From Polyangiales bacterium (GTDB lineage Bacteria > Myxococcota_A > Polyangia > Polyangiales > Polyangiaceae): a stretch of DNA of 64,000 nucleotides. The stretch is from NCBI GenBank assembly GCA_038231275.1, contig JBBRLQ010000007.1, positions 96,001-160,000 on the forward strand. The letters are read 5' to 3'. Position 1 is the first letter of the stretch. Each line of letters starts with the position of its first letter. Below the pieces are notes generated by a model. It made no database searches. It was not told where the DNA came from and saw nothing but the letters and a program-made list of their open reading frames with translations. A program made the position numbers and the translations under genes. Positions 48,566 to 64,000 of this stretch are shown one piece after another.

Positions 48566-50221
<1,656 letters not shown>

Positions 50222-50246
50222 GGATGCCGGTCGGTGTAGCACGAGC

Positions 50247-53395: not shown

Positions 53396-54838
53396 GTGGG
53401 CAAGGTCCTCATCGTCGACGACAACGCCGATCTCGTCTCGACGTTGAAGGCGGTGCTCGAGGCGCCGAGCGCCCGGTTCGACGTGGTGACCGCCTCGAAC
53501 GGCGCCGAAGCCCTGAAAATCGCAGCCCGCCAGGGGTTCGACGTCGCCATCGTGGACGTGAAGCTCCCCGACGCGAGCGGCGTGGATCTCATCCAGCCGC
53601 TGCGCGATCGCGCGAAGCTCTCGGAGGTCGTCCTCATCACCGGCTTCGCGAGCGTCGACGCGGCCATCGCCGCGCTACGATCGGGCGCCTTCGCGTTCGT
53701 CCTCAAATCGTTTCGCCCCGAGGAGCTCATCTCGACGGTCGAGCAGGCGCTCACCAAGGTGCAGCTCAAACGCGAGCGCGAAGAGCTCGAGCGCCGCTAC
53801 CGCGCCCTCGTCGAGCTCACCGACGTCCTCGTCGTGGGCCTCGACGATCGCGACTGCGTCGGCCTCTTCAATCCGAAGGCGGCCGCCGTCACGAAGGTCG
53901 CGGCCGATCAGGCGCTCGGCCGCCCGTTCGTCGAGAGCTGGATCCCACAAGAGGACCAGTCGCGGATGAAGGACGCGATCGCGCTCGCGCGGGCATCTGG
54001 CGCGCGAGAGGTCGAGACCGGCTTCACCGAGTCGCGGCGCCGCGTGCGCTGGCACCTGTCATGGGCCCCTGAGGACGTGGGGCGCGGGATGGTCTACGGC
54101 ATCGGGATCGACGTCACCGAGCGCCGCGCGCTCGAACGCCGCGCCGCCGACGCCGAGGCCCTGAGCGCGATGGGCACGCTGGCGATGAACCTCGCGCACG
54201 AGATCCGCAACCCCCTGAACGCCGCGGTCCTCCAGCTGAACCTGATGAACCGCCAGGTCGACAAGCTGGACGCCGAACCGGACATCCGTGCTGCACTGCA
54301 CAAGCGCGCGGAGATCGTTGGCGACGAGATCGGTCGCCTGAACCGCCTGCTCACCGAGTTCCTGGAGCTGGCCCGCCCGCGCGGGATCGGGCGCGAGCCG
54401 GTGCACGTCGGCGCGCTCGTGGACGACGTGCTCGACCTCGAGCTCGACCGCGCGCGCGAGCATGGCATCTCGGTCAAGCGCGAGATCGCCGCCGACGGGT
54501 GCGTGGCCATCGGCGATCGCGAGAAGTTGAAGCAGGTCGTCATCAACCTGGTCGTCAACGCGATAGAGGCGATGAAGACCGGCGGCACGCTCACCGCGCG
54601 CGTCACGCCGCAGAACGAGCACGTGACCATCGCGATCAGCGACACCGGTCCGGGGATCGAGCCTCAGAACCTCACGAGCGTCTTTGATCCGTTCTTCACC
54701 ACGAAGGAGGCCGGGACCGGCCTCGGCCTCTCGATCGTGCGCAAAATCGTGGACCAGCACGCCGGTGAGGTGCGCCTCGAGAGCGAGCGCGGAAGAGGCA
54801 CCCGCGTCGAGGTCACAATCCCGACGGGGCGAAACTAG
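53396..54838 (+). CDS. REC-PAS-histidine kinase
   Basis: [45 protein letters not shown] 2 nt after the gatB stop. Confidence 0.92.
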   Translation: MGKVLIVDDNADLVSTLKAVLEAPSARFDVVTASNGAEALKIAARQGFDVAIVDVKLPDASGVDLIQPLRDRAKLSEVVLITGFASVDAAIAALRSGAFAFVLKSFRPEELISTVEQALTKVQLKREREELERRYRALVELTDVLVVGLDDRDCVGLFNPKAAAVTKVAADQALGRPFVESWIPQEDQSRMKDAIALARASGAREVETGFTESRRRVRWHLSWAPEDVGRGMVYGIGIDVTERRALERRAADAEALSAMGTLAMNLAHEIRNPLNAAVLQLNLMNRQVDKLDAEPDIRAALHKRAEIVGDEIGRLNRLLTEFLELARPRGIGREPVHVGALVDDVLDLELDRAREHGISVKREIAADGCVAIGDREKLKQVVINLVVNAIEAMKTGGTLTARVTPQNEHVTIAISDTGPGIEPQNLTSVFDPFFTTKEAGTGLGLSIVRKIVDQHAGEVRLESERGRGTRVEVTIPTGRN

Positions 54839-54871
54839 CTCAGGAAGCGGAGCTGCCTGAGCTAGTTTCTT
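54831..54871. terminator. strong hairpin, probable intrinsic terminator
   Basis: GAAACTAGCTCAGG...CCTGAGCTAGTTTC, a 14-bp stem overlapping the kinase stop. Confidence 0.7.
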
Positions 54872-55011
54872 CCGTTCGCCTGGTGGAACCGTGGCCGGTT
54901 CCCTCATCGCTTCGCGACGAGCCCCCTCCGCGTGCTTCGCGGCTCGTGCTGTGCACGAGCGGGGAGGGCAACGCGAAATCAGGGAGCGGTGGGAGGGGGA
55001 CAGAAGTGAAT

Positions 55012-55236
55012 TCAGGAAGCGGTGGACGGCGCGGTGGCGCCGGGCATGTTCGCGACGAAGACCTTGCGGACCTCGGCGGCGAGCTTCTGCTGATAGGCGA
55101 TCGACTCCTTCGCCATCCGCGCGCTCTCCTCGATCGCCACCTGCGTGTGCGCTGCGGCCCGCGTCGTCTGCTGATCGACCATCTCCCACCAGAGGTTCGC
55201 GAACTGCTGCACCTGGGTCACGTATTCGTTCTTCAT
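55012..55236 (-). CDS. small helical protein, probable phasin-like granule protein
   Basis: AAAGGAG SD; 74 aa, Ala/Gln-rich helical; downstream of phaR with a PhaR-type box upstream. Confidence 0.6.
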   Translation of the reverse strand: MKNEYVTQVQQFANLWWEMVDQQTTRAAAHTQVAIEESARMAKESIAYQQKLAAEVRKVFVANMPGATAPSTAS

Positions 55237-55304
55237 TGGGTGGGCGTCTCCTTTCAACGCCGACCCCAACCCTAAGCATCCACGCGGGAGGGTCAATCCC
55301 ATTT

Positions 55305-55319
55305 TGTTGCAGTGCACAA
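55305..55319. promoter_or_regulatory. PhaR-type box 1
   Basis: TGTTGC-AGT-GCACAA, 8 bp upstream of minus-strand TTGACC-N16-TAGGGT. Confidence 0.7.
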
Positions 55320-55329
55320 AGATAGTTGT

Positions 55330-55866
55330 TCAGCTCCGGCGTCGCGGGCGCTTCAGCGCGCGCTTCAGCTCGTCGAGCTCGCGGCGCAGCTCGTCGACGT
55401 CGCTGGCCTGCGGGGAAGGCGCGGGAGGGGACGGCATCGGCGGAGGCGCGGCCGCTTGCTGCTGCCACGGGAGCCCGCCCATGAACATACGGGCGATCGC
55501 GTTGGTCGCCGAGAACGGCACCGTCGCGAGGGGGTTGTACGGCGAGAGCTGCTGCGCCCCCTGCTTCGCCTGCATGTAGAGCTCGAGAGCCCACGTCATG
55601 TACCGGCCGAAAAACTCGGCGAGCGCCTCGTCGCGCATTCGGATCAACTGCACGAGGAGCGGCACCGGAAGAAGCTTCGCTCGGTGCTCGAGGATGATCT
55701 GGGTGAGCGTCGACTGGGTCAGGTCCTCGTTCGTCTTGGCATCGACGACGCGCACGTCGACCCCCTCGCGGATCCGAACGGCGAGCTCGTCGAGCGTGAT
55801 GTAGTGGCTCGCGTCCGTGTCGTAGAGGCGACGGTTCGAGTACTTCTTGACGATCATCACGGCCAT
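55330..55866 (-). CDS. phaR: PHA synthesis repressor
   Basis: IVKKYSNRRLYDT, YITLDEL, VVDAKTNEDLT..TLTQII. Confidence 0.92.
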   Translation of the reverse strand: MAVMIVKKYSNRRLYDTDASHYITLDELAVRIREGVDVRVVDAKTNEDLTQSTLTQIILEHRAKLLPVPLLVQLIRMRDEALAEFFGRYMTWALELYMQAKQGAQQLSPYNPLATVPFSATNAIARMFMGGLPWQQQAAAPPPMPSPPAPSPQASDVDELRRELDELKRALKRPRRRS

Positions 55867-55943
55867 CTGGGGCCTTCTCCGTACTTGGCGAAGGGCCCCC
55901 GCGCAAGGAAGGATCGGCCTATGGCCGACCATGGGAAAGGTCG

Positions 55944-55995
55944 TGTTGCATCGCAACAAAAGCGCCTTGACGGACTCGCCGCCGGATCGTAGGTT
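55944..55995 (+). promoter_or_regulatory. PhaR-type box 2 plus sigma70-type promoter of the rightward operon
   Basis: TGTTGC-ATC-GCAACA (55944-55958), then 8 bp, TTGACG (55967)-N17-TAGGTT (55990). Confidence 0.75.
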
Positions 55996-56045
55996 CCGCC
56001 CGCCCTAACGCGGTGGACCGCGTTAGCCCTCGTGTGGGTCGTAAA

Positions 56046-57011
56046 ATGAAGTTGGGCGTGCGTTTCGTGGTCGCGTGCGCGTTCGCACTGCCGGCGTGTA
56101 CCAGCGGGGCCGACCGTGCGTGTACCGTCGGAGCGGAATGCGCCTCGGGTGTATGCCGGGGCGATGGCACCTGCGCACCCGCGGGGTCGGACGGCGGCGC
56201 GGGTCTCGAAGGCGGGGCGACGGGCGGCGACGGCGGAAGCGCGGACGGCGCGAGCGACGACGGCGCGAGCCTCGACGCGCCCACCCAAGGAGACGGAGCG
56301 GGAACCGGGTGCCTCCCGAATCACGACGGGACGATCCTGCGCACGGAGATCCCGCTCGGGCCCGGCCTCCACGCCAAATACACCGTCGCCCAGAGCGCCC
56401 CCGTCTCCACCGGCGGCACCGCGCAGCCGGACGGATCCCGCGTGTGGGATCTCACCGGCGCGCTTTCCGGCGATCACTCTCTGCTCGTCGAGACGCTCGC
56501 CCCGACCGGCCAATGGTTCGCCGGCGACTTTCCGCAGGCGTCGTACACCGCGCGCCTCACCGACTCGTCCGACTTGCTCGGCGTGTTCCAGACGACGCCG
56601 TCCGCGATCCTGCTGCTCGGGGCGGTGTCACCGTCCTCGGGCGCGAACGCGACGGAGCTGCCCAACAGCGCCGGCGTCCCTTCGCTCGCGTTCCCGATGA
56701 AGATGGGCTCGTCGTGGAATTCGAACGTGACGATCAACGGCAAGGTGAACGGCGTGCCGACCTTGTACGGCGACGCGTACGAGTCGTCGGTCGACGCGCA
56801 CGGCCTCATGAAGACGCCGTACGCCGACTTCCAGGTGCTGCGCATCAACACCAAGCTCACGCGCTCGGTGGGCGGCGTGCCGTCGCTCATTCTGCGGACG
56901 TACGCGTACGTCGCCGAGTGCGCGGGGCCGGTGGCGACGATCCTCTCGCAGAACAACGAGACGCAGGTGGAGTTCACGACGGCGGCCGAAGTGCAGAGGC
57001 TCGGCAAGTGA
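56046..57011 (+). CDS. hypothetical lipoprotein A
   Basis: Lipobox LPAC; small Cys module; beta-rich domain paralogous to 59502..60374. Confidence 0.8.
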   Translation: MKLGVRFVVACAFALPACTSGADRACTVGAECASGVCRGDGTCAPAGSDGGAGLEGGATGGDGGSADGASDDGASLDAPTQGDGAGTGCLPNHDGTILRTEIPLGPGLHAKYTVAQSAPVSTGGTAQPDGSRVWDLTGALSGDHSLLVETLAPTGQWFAGDFPQASYTARLTDSSDLLGVFQTTPSAILLLGAVSPSSGANATELPNSAGVPSLAFPMKMGSSWNSNVTINGKVNGVPTLYGDAYESSVDAHGLMKTPYADFQVLRINTKLTRSVGGVPSLILRTYAYVAECAGPVATILSQNNETQVEFTTAAEVQRLGK

Positions 57012-57913
57012 AGGCGCGACTCGCCATCGTCTGCGCGCTGCTCGTGTCGCTGCAGCCGATGGGCTGCGCCTCGTACCACCAGGGCGCGATCGCCGGCGAG
57101 CCCCGCACCGCAACATTCGCGGAGGTCGATGGCGTACGTGTCAGGTACACCGACGTCGGCGAGGGATCGCCGGTGGTCCTCGTGCACGGCTTCGCGTCGT
57201 CGCTCGATACATGGGGCGCGCTCGTGCCGGAGCTCTCGAAGAAGCACCGCGTCGTCGCGCTCGACCTGAAGGGCTTCGGCTGGAGCGATCGCCCCGAGGG
57301 GGACTACTCGCCGCGCGCACAGGCCGAGCTCGTCATGAAGCTCGCGGCGAGCCGCGGCATCGACACGTTCATGCTCGTCGGCCACTCGTTCGGCGCGTCG
57401 GTCGTCCTCGCCGCCACGCTCGCGCATCCGGAGAAGGTGACCAAGATCGCCCTCTACGACGCGTTCGTCTACGAGGAGCAGATCCCGACGTTCTTCCACT
57501 GGGCGAAGGCGGACGGCCTCGGTGAGGCTCTTTTCTCGCTGTATTACAAGGAGCGCGCCGACGAGCGGATGCGCCTGGCGTTCTACGATCCGAAGTTCGT
57601 GACCGAGCCGCTCGTCGAGAGCGTCGAGGCGCAGCTCGATCGGCCCGGCACCGTCGCCGCCGCGCTCGGCACCGTGCGCGCGATGCGCTACGCCGAGGTC
57701 GAGTCGCAGTACAAAAAGGTGCAGGTCCCGGCGCTGCTCTTGTGGGGGCGCGAGGACACGGTCACGACGCTCGCGTACGGTGAACGTCTCGCCGCCGATT
57801 TGCCGAAGTCTCGCCTCGTCGTCTACCCGCGGTGCGGTCACTTCCCGATGATCGAGGCGCGCGTCGCGTCGAACGCCGAGCTCGTCGCCTTCGCCGAGGA
57901 CGCGAAGCCGTGA
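57008..57913 (+). CDS. alpha/beta-hydrolase lipoprotein
   Basis: PMGC signal, VHGF, DLKGFG, GHSFG nucleophile elbow, WGRED, GHFP; GTGA overlap. Confidence 0.9.
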   Translation: MKARLAIVCALLVSLQPMGCASYHQGAIAGEPRTATFAEVDGVRVRYTDVGEGSPVVLVHGFASSLDTWGALVPELSKKHRVVALDLKGFGWSDRPEGDYSPRAQAELVMKLAASRGIDTFMLVGHSFGASVVLAATLAHPEKVTKIALYDAFVYEEQIPTFFHWAKADGLGEALFSLYYKERADERMRLAFYDPKFVTEPLVESVEAQLDRPGTVAAALGTVRAMRYAEVESQYKKVQVPALLLWGREDTVTTLAYGERLAADLPKSRLVVYPRCGHFPMIEARVASNAELVAFAEDAKP

Positions 57914-59499
57914 AGGCGTCGCGCGCGGTCTCGTGTTGCGTCGCGGCAATCGCCATCTCCGCGATGCTGCCCCGCAGCGCACGCGCGACCGGCTTCACCG
58001 ACACGGGTCAAGATCTCCAGCCGCGCGAGAAGGCGGAGGTCACGCTGCACGGCTACCTCCGCACGCGCTTCGAGGCGCTCGGCAACCTCGATCTCGATCG
58101 CGGCCTCACGCCGTCCGGCGACCCGCTCTTTCCGGTCTCGCGTTCGGACCCGAAGGCGCAGTGGCTGACGTACGCCGACATGCGCCTGCGCACGGACCTG
58201 GCGGTGTACGCGCCGGGCGCGGCGGTCGCGGTGAAGGCGCGCATCGACACGCTCGACAATTTCCCGCTCGGTGGCTCGGCCGACGGCATCCCGTCCGCGA
58301 GCACTACCCAGCGCGCCGCGGGCGACGCGATCCGCGTGAAACGAGCCTACGGCGAGGTGCTGACGCCGTTCGGCGTCGTCGTCGCTGGGCGCACCGGGAG
58401 CCACTGGGGCCTCGGCATCCTCACCAACTCTGGCGACTGCCTCGACTGCGACTCGGGCGATGCTGCCGATCGCATCGCGCTCATCTCGCCGCTCCTCGGA
58501 CACATCCTCGCGGTGGCCTACGATTTTTCGGCGACCGGCCCGTTCGACACGCGCCGCGCGAGCGGGCGCTCCATTGCGATCGAGCCGTCGACGAATGTGC
58601 GTTCCGTGACCGTGGCGCTCCTCAACTGGCGCGATGACATGGCACGCGAGCGTCGACGGGGAGCAGGGAAGGCGACGTTCGAGTACGGCGCGTATGGTGC
58701 AGTGCGAAGTCAGAAGGACGATCTATCGGCCGCGTACCTGCCCACGACGCAGCCGCTGCCGCTCGCGCCTTCGCAGGTGATGAGCCGCGGCTACCAGGCC
58801 TACGCGATCGACGGTTGGGCGCGGCTCACGCTGCCGAACGTCCGCATCGAGGCCGAGGCGGCGTACCTCAACGCGACGGTCGATCAGCCGTCGCTCATCC
58901 CCGGCGTGCTCCTTCACGACAAGGCGACGTCGAGCCAGCTCGGCGCGGCGCTCGAGAGCGAGGTGTCGCCCAAGGACGGGAGCTTCGGCGCCGGTGTCGA
59001 TCTCGGCTACGCGAGCGGCGATCCGGCGCCCGGCTTCGGCGTGAATCCGCAGCCGGGAGGGCGCCCGCCCAAGGCCGGCGATCTCGACGGCGCGCAGGCG
59101 ACGCCGCCGTTCGACAACAAGGTCGACAACTTCCGTTTCCACCCCGACTACCGGATCGATCGGATCCTCTTCCGCGAGATCATTGGCACGGTCACCGACG
59201 CGACGTACCTCCGCCCGCACGCGCGCGTGCGCCTCGCCAAGATCGGCCCGCACGCCGAGCTCACCGCGGCGGTGGCCGGCGTCGCGTCGTGGGCGGTGTA
59301 CGCCCAGTCGACCCCAGGTCAGCGGCGGCCCCTGGGGATCGAAGTGGATCCTACGCTTTCCTACGTGCATCGCGACGGATTCGCGGTCGCCCTCGAGCAC
59401 GCCGTGCTTTTTCCCCTGTCCGGGCTAGACAATCCGGTCCAGCACCTCGACGCCAAGCCCGCGCAGCTCGTCCGGCTGCGCCTCGCGTTCCGGTTTTGA
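57910..59499 (+). CDS. outer-membrane beta-barrel protein (TIGR04551-like)
   Basis: Signal peptide; HGYLRTR, SHWGLG, DCLDCDSGD, NFRFHPDYRIDRILFREIIG; terminal FRF. Confidence 0.78.
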   Translation: MKASRAVSCCVAAIAISAMLPRSARATGFTDTGQDLQPREKAEVTLHGYLRTRFEALGNLDLDRGLTPSGDPLFPVSRSDPKAQWLTYADMRLRTDLAVYAPGAAVAVKARIDTLDNFPLGGSADGIPSASTTQRAAGDAIRVKRAYGEVLTPFGVVVAGRTGSHWGLGILTNSGDCLDCDSGDAADRIALISPLLGHILAVAYDFSATGPFDTRRASGRSIAIEPSTNVRSVTVALLNWRDDMARERRRGAGKATFEYGAYGAVRSQKDDLSAAYLPTTQPLPLAPSQVMSRGYQAYAIDGWARLTLPNVRIEAEAAYLNATVDQPSLIPGVLLHDKATSSQLGAALESEVSPKDGSFGAGVDLGYASGDPAPGFGVNPQPGGRPPKAGDLDGAQATPPFDNKVDNFRFHPDYRIDRILFREIIGTVTDATYLRPHARVRLAKIGPHAELTAAVAGVASWAVYAQSTPGQRRPLGIEVDPTLSYVHRDGFAVALEHAVLFPLSGLDNPVQHLDAKPAQLVRLRLAFRF

Positions 59500-59501
59500 C
59501 C

Positions 59502-60374
59502 ATGAGACACGCCGCCGTCCTCCCGTTCACCCCCTTCATCGCGCTCGTCGCGTTGGCGCTCGTGGGCCTCGCGGCGTGCGGCGACAACCAGACGCACCCC
59601 GATCGCGCGACGTACGACGCCGGTCCCGCGCAGCCGCTGTCGTGCGTGCCGAACCTCGACGGAAAGATCGATCGCTCCGAGCTCGGTGCGGCCATCGGTG
59701 TGCCGGCGCGGTACTTGGTGTCGCCGGTCGGCGTCTCGCGCACCGTGAACCAGTCGGGCGGCGTCGATGCTGCGGGGCACAAAACGTGGGATTTCTCCAC
59801 CGACTACGCCGACGACCAGGCCGCGACGATCTCCGCGAGCGCGCCGACCGGCAAGTGGTACGCGGACAAGTTCCCCGGCGCGCAGTTCGTTTCACCGTTC
59901 GACGCGGGCGGCGCCGTCGACGCCGTGTACTCGGAGGACGACACCGCGATCTACCTGCTCGGCCTCGCGTCCTCCATCCAGAACCCCGCCGACGGTCAGA
60001 CCCTCTACGTCTACGACGCGCCGGTCCCGTTCCTCCGCTTCCCGCTGGCGCCCGGCAAGACGTGGACGAGCGTGGGCACGACGAAGAACCAAATGCTTCG
60101 CGGCCTGCCGTTCGCCGGCAAGGACACCTACGAGGTGACGGTCGACTCCGAGGGCCAGATGATCCTCCCCGACGTCACCTTCACCCAGGCGATCCGCGTC
60201 CGCACGAAGATCACGATCGAGCCCACCGTCGGCGCCACGACCGCGCAGTTCCAGACGAGCTGGTTCTTCGAGTGCTTCGGCGAGGTGGCGCGCGCCACGA
60301 GCAAGATCAACGAGGGCAGCCCCGACTTCACCAGCGCGCTGGAGATCCGTCGGCTAGGGCTGCCGGGACGCTAG
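59502..60374 (+). CDS. hypothetical lipoprotein B (paralog of lipoprotein A)
   Basis: Lipobox [37 protein letters not shown]. Confidence 0.8.
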
Positions 60375-60415
60375 AGATCGCGAACGAACGAACGAACGAG
60401 ACGGCAGAGGCGGGC

Positions 60416-60703
60416 ATGATGAACAAGGAACAGGGCAAGAAGGCGTTCGACGCGTGGGAGAACACCAGCGCGGCGTACATCGAGAAGTGGATGAAGAGCC
60501 CGCTCGTCCTCGCGCCGGTGGGCGCGCTCCTGACGCAGGCCATGCGCCTCAAAGAAGCGCACGAGAAGGTGATGACCTCGATGTGGTCGGCGTTGGGCCT
60601 GTCCACGAGGCGGGATCAGGAGCGGACCCTTTTTGCGCTGCACAAATTGGAGAGCCGCCTGATGGACCTCGAAGAGAAGCTCGACAAGAGGAACGGGGGT
60701 TGA
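60416..60703 (+). CDS. mini PhaE-like PHA synthase partner subunit
   Basis: 95 aa; [10 protein letters not shown]...LHKLESRL resembles the PhaE C-terminal L-x-L-P-T-R coiled-coil motif; in the phaC operon. Confidence 0.6.
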
Positions 60704-60705
60704 GG

Positions 60706-62283
60706 ATGGACGCGTCGCACTTTCAGGAGATCATGATCGCCCCGCGCGCGGTTTTCAACGCGCTGCCCGCGCACGGAGGCAAGCCGCGCTTCATGGTGCA
60801 GACGCCGGAGGGCGGCTGGCGGCCCGTCACCTGGCAAGAGTTCGCAGACCAGATCCGCGACATCGCGCTCATGTTGCAGGCCCGCGGCCTGAAGAGTGGC
60901 GACCGCGCGGCGGTGTTCGCGCACAACTCCGTGGAGTGGGCAGCGAGCGCGCTGGCGATCCAGGCGGCCGGTGGCGTGATGGTGCCAATTTACCCGGCGA
61001 GCACGCCGGCGCAGGCGCTCTACGTCCTCGAGCACTCCGACGCGCGCTTCGTCTTCACGGACAAGGCCTCGCGCATCCCCGCGGGGTGGAAGGGGGACGT
61101 GGTCGCGTTCGAGCCGGCGTCGTGGAAGCACGCGCGCACCGTCGGCGCCGAGGCGCACGCGAAGGATCCCGATCTCTTCACCCGCACGATGCTCGCGGTC
61201 CCGCTCGAGCAGCCGGGGATGATGCTCTACACGAGCGGCACCAGCGGCAACCCCAAGGGCGTGCCCCTCACGCACATGAACGTGGGCGTCAACGGACGCG
61301 ACTGGTTCAACGCGCTCCTCGCGCAGATCGACGAAAATAGCGTGGATCTCCTGTGGCTGCCGATGAGCCACATCTTCGGCTTCGGCGAGATGTGCCTCGG
61401 CAATACGCTCGGCTTCACGACCTACTTGGTGGAGCCCGCGAGCGTCTTTGCGAAGCTCCCGGAGGTGAAGCCGAACGTCTTCATGAGCGTCCCGTCGCAC
61501 TGGGAGAAGATCTCGATCCTCGCCGAGGGCAGCAAAGAGAAGCTCGATCAGATCACCGGCGGTCACTTCAAGTTCTGCCTCTCCGGCGGCGCCGGCCTCA
61601 AGCGCGAGGTGAAGGAGGCGTACCACAAGGCGGGCGTCCTCATCATCGAGGGGTACGGCCTCACCGAGACGTCGCCGACGCTGACCATGAACACGCCCAA
61701 GGCGTTTCGGTTCGACACCGTCGGCAAGCCGTTCCCGAGCGTCGAGGTGAAGCTCGCGGAGGACGGAGAGATCCTGGCGCGCGGCCCCAGCGTCTTCAGC
61801 GGCTACCACAAGGAGCCGGCGGCGACGAAAGAGGCGTTCACCGACGACGGCTGGTTCAAGACCGGCGACGTCGGTCAGTTCACCGAGGACGGCTTCCTCA
61901 AGATCGTCGACCGCAAGAAGGACATCCTGGTGACCGCCGGCGGCAAGAACGTTCCGCCGGCGAACATCGAGCTCCGCTTCCGCGACGATCCGCTCGTTTT
62001 GCACCTTGTCGTATACGGCGATGCAAAAAAGTACCTCGTCGCCGGCGTGTGGCTAAACCCTGACGTCGCCCGCGGTCTGTCGAAGGACGAGATCCAGGCG
62101 AAGGTGCAGGCCACCGTCGACCGCATCAACCGTGAGCTCGCGAGCTTCGAGACGATCAAGAAATTCGCGATCATCGATCACCCGCTCACCGTCGAGGGCG
62201 AGCTCTTGACCGCGTCGCTCAAGGTACGTCGCAAGAAGATCTACGAGACGTTCCGGACCACCTTCGAAGGGCTCTACGCATGA
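60706..62283 (+). CDS. acyl-CoA synthetase (long-chain fatty acid--CoA ligase family)
   Basis: [37 protein letters not shown]. Confidence 0.93.
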
Positions 62284-63359
62284 CCCCCCCCGACGAGACG
62301 AAGCGCTGGCGGAACCTGTCGTCGCTGCTCACGAAGCCGCCGCCGCCGGTGGGGACGACGCCGTCCGACGTGGTTCTCAGCGAGAACAAGATGCGCGTGA
62401 TCCGGTACCGGGGAACGCCCACGAAGAAGACGCCGGTGCTCGTCGTCCCGTCGCTCATCAACCGTCACTACGTGCTCGACCTCTTGCCCGGCAAGAGCTT
62501 CGTCGAGTTCATGGTCGCGCAAGGGCACGACGTCTACATGATCGATTGGGGTCGGCCGACGAGCGAGGATCGCTACGTCACCTTCGACGACCTGTGCGAC
62601 GGGTACCTTGGCCGCGCGATCCGCAAGGTCGCGCGCCTCTCGGGGAGCAAGGTGCATCTCCTCGGCTATTGCCTCGGCGGAACGCTGGCCGCGATCCACA
62701 CGGCGAAGAACCCCGAGCACGTGGCGTCGATCGCGCAGCTCGCGGCGCCGGTCAGCTTCGCGGACGACGGGCAGCTCGCCGTGTGGACGCGATCGTCCAC
62801 GTTCGACATCGGATCGGTGTTGGCCGCGTGCGGCAACGTGCCGTCGTGGCTGATGCAAGCCTCCTTCCAAATGCTCCGGCCGACGATGAACCTCTCGAAG
62901 ATCGTGCACCTCGTCGACAAGGCGGGGGACGACGATTTTCTGGAGGGCTTCCGCGCGATCGAGGCGTGGGCGAACGACAACGTCGACTTCCCAGGCGAGG
63001 TCTACCGTCGCTACATCCAGGAGCTGTACCGAGAGGACCGCCTCATCAAGGGGACGTTCCGCCTCGGAGGCGCCCCGGCCCGCCTCGAGTCCATCACGTG
63101 CCCGGTCATGTGCGTCACGTTCGAGCACGATCACATCGTGCCGTGGCGGAGCGCGGCCGTGATGCTCGACAAGGTGTCGTCGATCGACAAGGAGCACCTG
63201 CACCTGCCGGGCGGTCACGTCGGCTCGGTCATCTCCCGCGCCGCGAAGAAACACCTCTGGCCGAAGATCAGCGCCTTCTGGTCATCCCGCCCGCGCGCGA
63301 TCGAGATCCTCGACCCCCCCCTTGCAAATGCTGCGGTGCAACATACAATGCAGGGCTGA
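62280..63359 (+). CDS. phaC: class III PHA synthase subunit PhaC
   Basis: [39 protein letters not shown]; 359 aa; ATGA overlap. Confidence 0.92.
63322..63349 (+). promoter_or_regulatory. internal promoter for phaZ containing PhaR-type box 3
   Basis: TTGCAA-N16-TACAAT with TGCTGC-GGT-GCAACA (63329-63343) in the spacer. Confidence 0.7.
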
Positions 63360-63386
63360 ACGGGGTGGGCGAGGACAACCGACGAC

Positions 63387-64000
63387 ATGCTCTACAAGAT
63401 TCACGAGCTACAACGCTCGTTTCTGACCCCGATGGCGGCCTTCGCCGAGCTGAGCGCGCGCGCGTTCGCGGAGGGGCCGCTGGCGGTGCTCCCTTTCGCG
63501 GAGCGCGCGGCCGCCGGGTACGAGCTGCTGTACCGCCTCGGCAAGGAGTACGAGAAGCCTGCGTTCGGTCTCGAGGAGACGACGCTGGACGGACCCTCGG
63601 GCGCGACGGTCGCCGTGCGGGAGCGCGTGGTCGTGGAGAAGCCGTTCTGCCGCCTGCTCCACTTCGAGCGGGACGTCCCCAAGGGCCGGGCAAAAGACCC
63701 CAAGGTGCTCGTGGTCGCGCCGCTCTCGGGCCACCACGCGACGCTCCTCCGCGACACGGTTCGCCAGCTGCTCCATTCACACGACGTCTACGTCACCGAC
63801 TGGATCGACGCGCGCATGGTGCCGCTCTCCAAGGGGCCGTTCCACCTCGACGACTACGTCTCCTACGTGGAGGAGTTCTTGCGACGGCTCGGGCCGGATC
63901 TGCACGTTTTGTCGGTGTGCCAGCCCACGGTGCCGGTCCTCGCGGCGATCGCGCTCATGGCGACGGAGAGCGATCCGAAGCTCCCGCGCACGATGACGAT
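63387..64000 (+). CDS. phaZ: intracellular PHB depolymerase (truncated by the window edge)
   Basis: Translated by hand (absent from the ORF track): MLYKIHE, YEKPAFGL, KPFCRLLHF, VAPLSGHHATLLRDTV, DVYVTDW, SVCQPTVP. Confidence 0.93.
   Translation, partial: MLYKIHELQRSFLTPMAAFAELSARAFAEGPLAVLPFAERAAAGYELLYRLGKEYEKPAFGLEETTLDGPSGATVAVRERVVVEKPFCRLLHFERDVPKGRAKDPKVLVVAPLSGHHATLLRDTVRQLLHSHDVYVTDWIDARMVPLSKGPFHLDDYVSYVEEFLRRLGPDLHVLSVCQPTVPVLAAIALMATESDPKLPRTMT

Follow-up and report, generated by a model that had tools for sequence, protein, structure and literature searches.

A polyhydroxyalkanoate synthase gene cluster of Polyangiales joined to a conserved outer-membrane module, with a possible role in salvage of ester-bound acids

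The window analysed here is a stretch of 64,000 nucleotides (C7:96001-160000; contig JBBRLQ010000007.1) from a Polyangiales bacterium genome of 9.28 Mb (GCA_038231275.1; 164 contigs, 94% complete). At positions 55012 to 64000 of this window lies a polyhydroxyalkanoate (PHA) gene cluster in which, as read from the sequence, a PHA synthase unit (PhaC, a PhaE remnant and a dedicated acyl-CoA ligase) is joined to a module of four predicted outer-membrane proteins, with phaR divergent from both. Because the region has ~65-70% G+C and therefore many spurious raw open reading frames (ORFs), genes were called by frames of third-position GC content (GC3), and families were scanned with Pfam and with NCBIfam at its curated cut-offs. 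The forward strand carries lipoprotein A (56046-57011; 321 aa, lipobox LPAC), a lipoprotein alpha/beta-hydrolase (57008-57913; PF00561, E 4e-31), an outer-membrane beta-barrel (57910-59499; TIGR04551, 323.8 bits against a cut-off of 300) and lipoprotein B (59502-60374; 290 aa), which we call the envelope cassette, followed by a 95-aa protein (60416-60703), the acyl-CoA ligase (60706-62283; PF00501, E 6.5e-68, plus PF23562), PhaC (62280-63359; 359 aa) and PhaZ (63387-64000, continuing beyond the window edge to the equivalent of 64616). On the reverse strand are phaR (55330-55959; PF07879, E 4.1e-26; TIGR01848, 97.9 bits, below the cut-off of 109.45) and a small helical ORF of 101 aa (55012-55317). 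This inventory, obtained from GC3 frames and family scans, matches that of the first-pass annotation of the same DNA.

The forward genes are closely packed, with 4-base overlaps at three junctions (57008/57011, 57910/57913 and 62280/62283) and 2-base gaps at two (59499/59502 and 60703/60706), and the widest intergenic gaps are 41 bases (60374/60416) and 27 bases (63359/63387). At 62280/62283 the ligase stop overlaps the phaC start, an arrangement from which we read ligase and phaC as translationally coupled. The 41-base gap separates the envelope cassette from the synthase unit, and the first-pass annotation had named a break in transcription at this place as something that would count against its proposal. 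Scanning positions 54800-64000 gave two promoter-like and three terminator-like sites (a terminator count no higher than the shuffle expectation), with no terminator-like site at 60374-60416. Much of the spacer itself consists of four tandem CGAA units (60380-60399), without a hairpin. The divergent control region between phaR and lipoprotein A (55960-56045, from reading of the sequence) contains a perfect inverted repeat at 56005-56026, with 8-bp arms and a loop of 6 bases, 20 bases ahead of the start of lipoprotein A; this repeat could be an operator or a leader hairpin.

The two halves of the cluster also travel together in other genomes. Within a close set of 41 genomes of the same order, this genome included, the same 14 genomes hold the lipoprotein family in two copies, an orthologous PhaC and a barrel orthologue (39-90% identity), and the cassette stands beside pha genes in all 13 close loci that were fetched; the remaining barrel matches among the 41 genomes are a different, ubiquitous TIGR04551 paralogue. 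A profile scan with lipoprotein B, using one genome per species, returned 236 stretches, 80 of which were analysed, all from Myxococcota-type metagenome-assembled genomes. We found the barrel in 77 of these 80 loci, the hydrolase in 72, lipoprotein A in 67, the 95-aa gene in 68, the ligase in 74, phaC in 73 and phaR in 58, and the exact gene order seen here in 52. As for the seven loci without phaC, six end at most 1.4 kb after lipoprotein B, and the seventh (L123) has 6.9 kb of downstream sequence without phaC and is cut upstream. At least eight loci are rearranged, with the ligase-phaC pair lying across phaR and another phaC directly before lipoprotein A.

On the scale of the phylum, 103 of 401 sampled genomes, from 77 of 255 genera, carry the lipoprotein family, usually as a pair of copies ~3.3 kb apart. 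We examined 18 diverged loci from other families (~30-57% identity), which show several gene orders and, in some cases, three lipoprotein A-like copies; phaC lies beside the cassette in 14 of them and a ligase in 13. Two of the four diverged loci without phaC are cut by contig ends, a third (L130) has the ligase only, and the fourth (L132) has neither phaC nor ligase within 18.6 kb. Four genomes whose cassette loci lack phaC (G429, G291, G122 and G106) have phaC-like genes on other contigs, a fragmentation that allows no verdict on linkage. Pfam was run on five of the diverged loci and placed their ligase in another subfamily (PF00501 plus PF13193), and the three of them run on NCBIfam all gave PRK06187. 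Different ligases thus occupy the position next to phaC. The concern raised in the first-pass annotation, that the four envelope genes might usually occur apart from pha genes, was thus not borne out (14 genomes; 73 of 80 and 14 of 18 loci). Adjacency that survives reordering, exchange of paralogues and replacement by a non-orthologous ligase is strong evidence for functional coupling of the envelope cassette with the synthase.

Across these loci, the conserved set consists of phaR, an optional group (small protein, second phaC and reductase), the cassette of lipoprotein A, hydrolase, barrel and lipoprotein B, and finally the PhaE remnant, ligase and PhaC. The second phaC stands beside a FabG/PhaB-like reductase in 37 of the 80 loci, and the phaC of the present cluster stands beside the ligase. 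In full, the optional arrangement runs divergently from the envelope operon in 36-37 other loci (e.g. L054:3611-5371), where phaR is accompanied by a ~100-aa protein, a second phaC of ~40% identity and a FabG/PhaB-like reductase. The second phaC of the relatives is absent from this genome, and the orthologue of the reductase lies on a separate contig (C8). These pairings suggest that, in the relatives, the phaC next to the reductase would be served by de novo supply and the phaC studied here, next to the ligase, by supply from free acids. An inner-membrane transporter is not among the conserved genes: clustering of neighbouring ORFs in 105 loci gave no further family in more than 17 loci, though this is a coarse screen whose GC3 filter made it miss the hydrolase and the barrel, and a major facilitator superfamily transporter follows phaC in only 11 of the 80 loci. 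Two loci of one distant family (L128:11373-15487 and L136:3695-9155) have a phaC-like gene by the cassette and then an MBOAT acyltransferase and a GDSL/SGNH protein, a pairing with a known role in acyl transfer across the inner membrane. A further locus (L043, G025:C25:16000-35999; genome 70% complete) holds a full cluster in which phaR, lipoprotein A, the barrel, the PhaE remnant and the ligase are spread over several frames and the phaC matches contain TGA stops, as would result from decay of the cluster or from poor assembly.

PhaC is predicted to be a class III-like synthase. Its size of ~40 kDa and its Cys nucleophile, placed in a lipase-like box and accompanied by the Asp and His, agree with class III, but its score stays below the curated cut-off of that family (TIGR01836; 278.4 versus 365.3 bits). 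Aligned to the catalytic domain of a solved class I synthase (5hz2), its G-Y-C-L-G-G falls on the Cys box, and D-H-I-V-P-W and G-H are also paired. The class III label of the first-pass annotation is therefore kept as class III-like, on the active-site alignment, and not as full membership of the family. The 95-aa protein matched PF09712 in a wide Pfam search (E 0.018) over profile positions 235-295 of 311, and this C-terminal part of the profile is matched by 10 of 12 orthologues (best E 2.7e-6). We take it to be a PhaE remnant and the presumed partner of PhaC, in agreement with its earlier description as a mini-PhaE; a full-length PhaE was not found in the genome (PF09712, E up to 0.1; genome 94% complete).

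The 101-aa ORF after phaR had been called phasin-like. It matches no Pfam or NCBIfam family and no phasin family, and Phasin_2 (PF09361) has no match in the genome. It is a distant homologue (best E 2.3e-6) of the ~100-aa protein that lies between phaR and the second phaC in 36 related loci, and its orthologue in a genome of the same genus is 82% identical over 66 aa. Since it is homologous to a conserved family that follows phaR, it appears to be a real pha-associated gene, likely starting at an internal Met to give a product of ~74 aa; the earlier label is accordingly softened to pha-associated, with a phasin role no more than possible.

Completed beyond the window edge, PhaZ has 409 aa and scores 601.5 bits with TIGR01849 (258.8 bits when cut off at the edge). 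The next gene on this strand encodes a 3-hydroxybutyrate dehydrogenase (TIGR01963, 321.4 bits; cut-off 307.05), and the genes after it are unrelated. This phaC and this phaZ are the sole copies found in the genome by tblastn. PhaZ had been counted as a member of the same-strand run, which agrees with its position here, but it is in the locus in only 2 of the 80 loci and is outside the conserved unit. An acetoacetyl-CoA synthetase, as a partner of the dehydrogenase, was considered for the ligase and rejected, with no such family among the best 25 of its 105 NCBIfam matches. The first-pass annotation had also noted that no phaA, phaB or phaJ is present. This is correct within the window, where no thiolase, acetoacetyl-CoA reductase or MaoC match exceeds its cut-off, but it is only a local absence: five thiolases and two MaoC hydratases over cut-off (one of the latter beside a thiolase on C36) are encoded elsewhere in the genome, as is a PhaB-like reductase. 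This reductase (C8:261435-262193; 69.6% identity) lies in a non-pha context and is the orthologue of the one that sits beside the second phaC in relatives; no acetoacetyl-CoA reductase in the genome exceeds the TIGR01829 cut-off (best 216.7 bits).

With a possible bearing on degradation of polyhydroxybutyrate (PHB), the genome has ten matches to Esterase_PHB (PF10503), three of them in tandem. The tandem genes (C17:55234-59552; open frames of 478-1091 aa) could encode secreted PHB depolymerases or feruloyl-type esterases. A search for a 3-hydroxybutyrate-oligomer hydrolase (PF10605) gave no match in the genome and was uninformative, as its control likewise matched nowhere. Around the cluster, a receiver domain followed by a histidine kinase, judged by eye, is encoded at ~53409-54838 on the forward strand, between gatB and the small pha-associated gene and convergent with the latter. 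About 5 kb upstream of the pha locus lies the large subunit of methylmalonyl-CoA mutase (48566-50242, reverse strand; TIGR00641, 756 bits), which could have a bearing on propionyl and 3-hydroxyvalerate metabolism.

Placement of the cassette in the envelope is predicted from the signals of its products, three with a lipoprotein signal and one with an outer-membrane-protein signal. The hydrolase matches PF00561, PF12697 and PF12146, and has G-H-S-F-G around its nucleophile; 12 of 13 orthologues begin with a lipobox that includes the Cys. Among solved structures, 6i8w comes closest to it (E 5.1e-27, 98 bits, over residues 37-288 of 301), which paper listings describe as PlaF, a membrane-bound phospholipase A1 of P. 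aeruginosa. By this similarity the hydrolase is predicted to be a lipoprotein serine esterase of lipase type, PlaF-like over the catalytic domain; it has no match to PF10503, the family of extracellular PHB depolymerases. The ligase is closest, among solved structures, to FadD5 of M. tuberculosis (E 2.6e-36), and is probably an AMP-forming ligase of fatty-acyl-CoA type. Compared with its orthologues, the ligase of this genus lacks ~50-70 aa, owing to four separate deletions in loops, with adenylation and core motifs kept.

The barrel has no Pfam family even at E up to 10, and 12 of its 13 orthologues have a signal peptide and a C-terminal aromatic residue. An AF2 model (mean confidence, pLDDT, of 71.9) has 18 strands as counted from the DSSP string; the turns at one end of the barrel are short and the loops at the opposite end long. 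Structure comparison by VIA gave Z-scores of 24.4 for MOMP, 23.9 for AlgE and 22-23 for Occ/OprD channels, the last two over ~330-370 aligned residues, against ~15 for 16-strand porins, and the best Foldseek match was AlgE (E 2.1e-13). The model thus describes an 18-strand monomeric barrel of the OprD/AlgE/MOMP type, and since it is about equally close to the Occ/OprD uptake channels and to the exporter AlgE, the fold cannot tell import from export. Within TIGR04551, the barrel appears to be a pha-linked paralogue. The second copy in the genome (C2:64267-65940; 542.3 bits) lies in a non-pha context; its neighbours, judged by eye, are an IHF-like protein, a MerR-like protein and a response regulator, without relatives of lipoprotein A or B. 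With this unrelated neighbourhood, the canonical paralogue was rejected as an explanation of the pha-linked barrel.

Lipoproteins A and B are ~33% identical to each other over ~250 aa, are the only copies in the genome (tblastn), and match no Pfam or NCBIfam family. Both have a C-terminal E-x-R/Q-R-L-G motif and two common conserved Cys positions; two Cys residues, C48 and C258, are invariant in the lipoprotein B alignment. In lipoprotein A, the lipobox is followed by a Cys-rich motif, which 10 of 12 true orthologues also have at the N-terminus, a linker rich in Gly, Ser and Asp, and finally the domain that is paralogous to lipoprotein B. The AF2 model of lipoprotein B (pLDDT 84.6) is a closed soluble beta-barrel. 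By VIA it resembles a Parabacteroides lipoprotein (4fvs; Z 9.9, 174 residues aligned, root-mean-square deviation 4.1) and YmcC (2in5; Z 7.5), against a background of 7-8 for this tool. Foldseek gave no match at E <=0.001, the best being 3fzx (E 0.04, probability 0.89). The modelled fold is tentatively called YmcC-like, its scores being at most modestly above background. In the ESM Atlas, lipoprotein B meets only its own Myxococcota clusters, one of them auto-named as a lipoprotein-sorting family, with a weak DUF3108-like lead (0.80).

The first-pass annotation had proposed modelling the barrel with the lipoproteins, and for lipoprotein B such a model passes its controls. Predictions of the barrel-lipoprotein B complex had a median score of 0.63, against 0.00 for the best of three controls, and the runs agreed in at least 86% of contacts, with a partner pLDDT of at least 81. 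In calibration, 116 of 157 solved complexes and 2 of 215 mismatched pairs attained this score, figures that apply approximately here as own alignments were supplied. The contacts fall on barrel residues 274-289 and 330-336, which, with strands counted from either end of the model, would be extracellular loops 5 and 6. The model thus supports binding of lipoprotein B to extracellular loops of the barrel and, if the loop assignment is right, would make lipoprotein B a surface lid. Such surface-lid geometry is typical of uptake machines rather than exporters.

Taken together, the reading that we favour, at a probability of about one half, is surface capture, ester hydrolysis, uptake, trapping as coenzyme A (CoA) thioesters and polymerisation, a chain whose every step we infer. 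Lipoproteins on the outer face of the barrel would bind ester-linked hydroxyacyl or acyl material, such as PHA oligomers or lipids of lysed cells, and the lipoprotein esterase would release the acids, which could then cross the outer membrane via the barrel. The acids would cross the inner membrane without a dedicated transporter and be trapped by the ligase as CoA thioesters, following the logic of FadL and FadD, after which PhaC would polymerise hydroxyacyl-CoA into granules. That no inner-membrane transporter is conserved fits with a ligase that traps acids as they cross this membrane. It is established that in P. putida an acyl-CoA synthetase reactivates free 3-hydroxy acids for PhaC (PMC8764540). 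Either substrate would have its counterpart in the genes: PHA oligomers would fit the synthase and the ten Esterase_PHB genes, and acyl lipids would fit the PlaF-like hydrolase and the ligases of fatty-acid type. This four-step chain is the simplest one that uses every conserved part. The scavenging pathway put forward in the first-pass annotation thus gains from the conserved linkage and the modelled barrel-lipoprotein contact, and loses two of its supports, as monomer supply is missing only locally and PhaZ is outside the conserved unit.

Several observations weigh against salvage into storage polyester. With thiolases, MaoC hydratases and a PhaB-like reductase encoded elsewhere, de novo monomer supply is possible in this genome and salvage is not forced. 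The hydrolase reaches no PHB depolymerase family above cut-off (NF050089, 79.4 bits versus 300), and the solved PHB depolymerase 8ynv aligns to it only over residues 23-153. Both ligase types look like medium-/long-chain fatty-acid ligases, not short-chain ones, and short monomers are the usual substrates of class III synthases. The complex model is support for binding, not proof of it, and its loop assignment comes from a barrel model of pLDDT 71.9. The barrel model is as close to the alginate exporter AlgE as to uptake channels, and the resemblance of the lipoprotein fold to YmcC/GfcB, part of a capsule assembly operon, points to export. In one diverged locus (L132), no phaC is present from 4 kb upstream to 10 kb downstream of the cassette. 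More generally, direction and substrate are deduced from sequence and models.

In the opposite direction of transport, hydroxyacyl oligomers or polymer made by PhaC would leave via the barrel for the periplasm or cell surface, with lipoproteins as a scaffold and the hydrolase for trimming, as in synthase-dependent exopolymer secretion. AlgE is the best Foldseek match of the barrel (E 2.1e-13) and is tied at the top in VIA (Z 23.9), but Occ/OprD uptake channels match it equally well. The resemblance of lipoprotein B to YmcC (Z 7.5) would fit as well, ymcC belonging to the E. coli capsule assembly operon together with a predicted barrel, and a periplasmic hydrolase is typical of exopolymer secretion systems; the modelled lipoprotein, however, sits on extracellular loops, whereas the exporter partners AlgK and PelC are periplasmic. 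No inner-membrane translocase or membrane-bound synthase is conserved nearby, and PhaC, the PhaE remnant and the ligase show neither a signal peptide nor a clear transmembrane segment when their translations are read. Storage metabolism is also the better match for a PhaR-type regulator and for a ligase acting on free acids. We consider export, or an envelope polyester, unlikely, and its more specific form, secretion or surface display, through the AlgE-like barrel, of chains made by ligase and PhaC, with help from the YmcC-like lipoproteins and trimming by the hydrolase, slightly less probable again.

Comparably unlikely, in our estimate, is recycling of the cell's own envelope lipids, whereby the complex and the PlaF-like hydrolase would remove and cleave outer-membrane or mislocalised phospholipids, the ligase would reactivate the fatty acids, and PHA would be reached via beta-oxidation and a hydratase encoded elsewhere. 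This would account for phospholipase A1 PlaF as the nearest solved relative of the hydrolase (E 5.1e-27) and for the fatty-acid type of both ligase subfamilies, and there are known parallels in the MlaA-OmpC lipoprotein-porin complex, which acts in lipid asymmetry, and in E. coli FadD acting on PldA products. MaoC hydratases over cut-off do exist in the genome, but the hydratase that such a pathway needs is never in the cluster. Through many rearrangements the cassette tracks phaC and not genes of beta-oxidation or lipid synthesis, and its presence in about a quarter of sampled genomes would be odd for a housekeeping function. It could also be that the envelope cassette is unrelated to PHA and merely co-located or co-regulated, since the halves are linked here through genomic context, the cassette of L132 has no phaC nearby, and at least eight loci have the halves as separate transcription units. 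Against this stand the co-occurrence of the halves in the same 14 of 41 genomes, their adjacency in 73 of 74 testable close loci, and their adjacency in 14 of 18 distant loci across gene orders, PhaC clades and a swapped ligase subfamily, and we regard mere co-location as very improbable.

The pha enzymes of this cluster are ordinary ones; what is new to us is the attached outer-membrane module and its tight phylum-wide coupling with phaC. We know of no PHA locus with an outer-membrane module, and a literature search, with subscription journals outside its coverage, found nothing on TIGR04551 or on this cluster. The lipoprotein family comprises at least 748 sequence clusters, and every source name among the 120 listed is 'hypothetical protein'. 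The barrel and both lipoproteins have no Pfam family, and the hydrolase has generic alpha/beta-hydrolase families only. Through a quarter of the sampled phylum genomes, the module follows phaC. If salvage is true, predatory or saprophytic myxobacteria would turn the ester-bound acids of others directly into storage polymer, a short-cut in carbon cycling, and the cluster would offer a natural ligase-plus-synthase route from free hydroxy acids to PHA. If export is true, an extracellular or envelope-bound myxobacterial polyester would be a new class of secreted biopolymer and the first polyester counterpart of synthase-dependent exopolysaccharide secretion. Under either reading, the cluster gives a first testable context for one branch of TIGR04551 barrels and for the lipoprotein family.

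Known systems resemble parts of this cluster. Vectorial acylation by FadL and FadD in E. coli likewise combines a barrel with a cytoplasmic acyl-CoA ligase and works without a dedicated inner-membrane transporter. The barrel here has 18 strands, whereas FadL has 14, and FadL is absent from the barrel match lists and scores low against the lipoprotein model; the present cluster also adds two lipoproteins and a hydrolase, and its product would go to PhaC. SusCD and TbpAB share the lipoprotein lid that is modelled here on extracellular loops of the barrel, and in the present cluster a lipoprotein hydrolase is encoded alongside. Theirs are 22-strand TonB-dependent barrels, in contrast to the 18 strands found here, with no plug domain or TonB box identified in the DSSP string of the model. 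AlgE and the Occ/OprD channels are of the same 18-strand monomeric fold class as the modelled barrel (Z 23.9 and 22-23, respectively), at 9-13% identity, and differ in their partners, which are YmcC-like lipoproteins here and AlgK, a tetratricopeptide repeat lipoprotein, or none in those systems. The YmcC/GfcB-like and BDI_3050-like lipoproteins (2in5, 4fvs and 3fzx) may share the soluble closed beta-barrel with lipoprotein B, at an identity of 6-10% and with Z-scores close to the tool background of 7-8.

PlaF (6i8w), the nearest solved relative of the hydrolase, is membrane-tethered, as the hydrolase is predicted to be; the paper listings place PlaF at the cytoplasmic membrane, whereas the hydrolase here carries a lipoprotein signal. 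In the PHA cycle of P. putida (PMC8764540), PhaC, PhaZ and the acyl-CoA synthetase FadD1/ACS1 act together, and synthase, depolymerase and an acyl-CoA ligase are all encoded together here. Compared with that cycle, PhaZ is in the cluster in only 2 of the 80 loci, the ligase is in an operon and coupled to phaC, a 95-aa PhaE remnant accompanies a synthase of class III-like type, and an outer-membrane module of four genes is attached.

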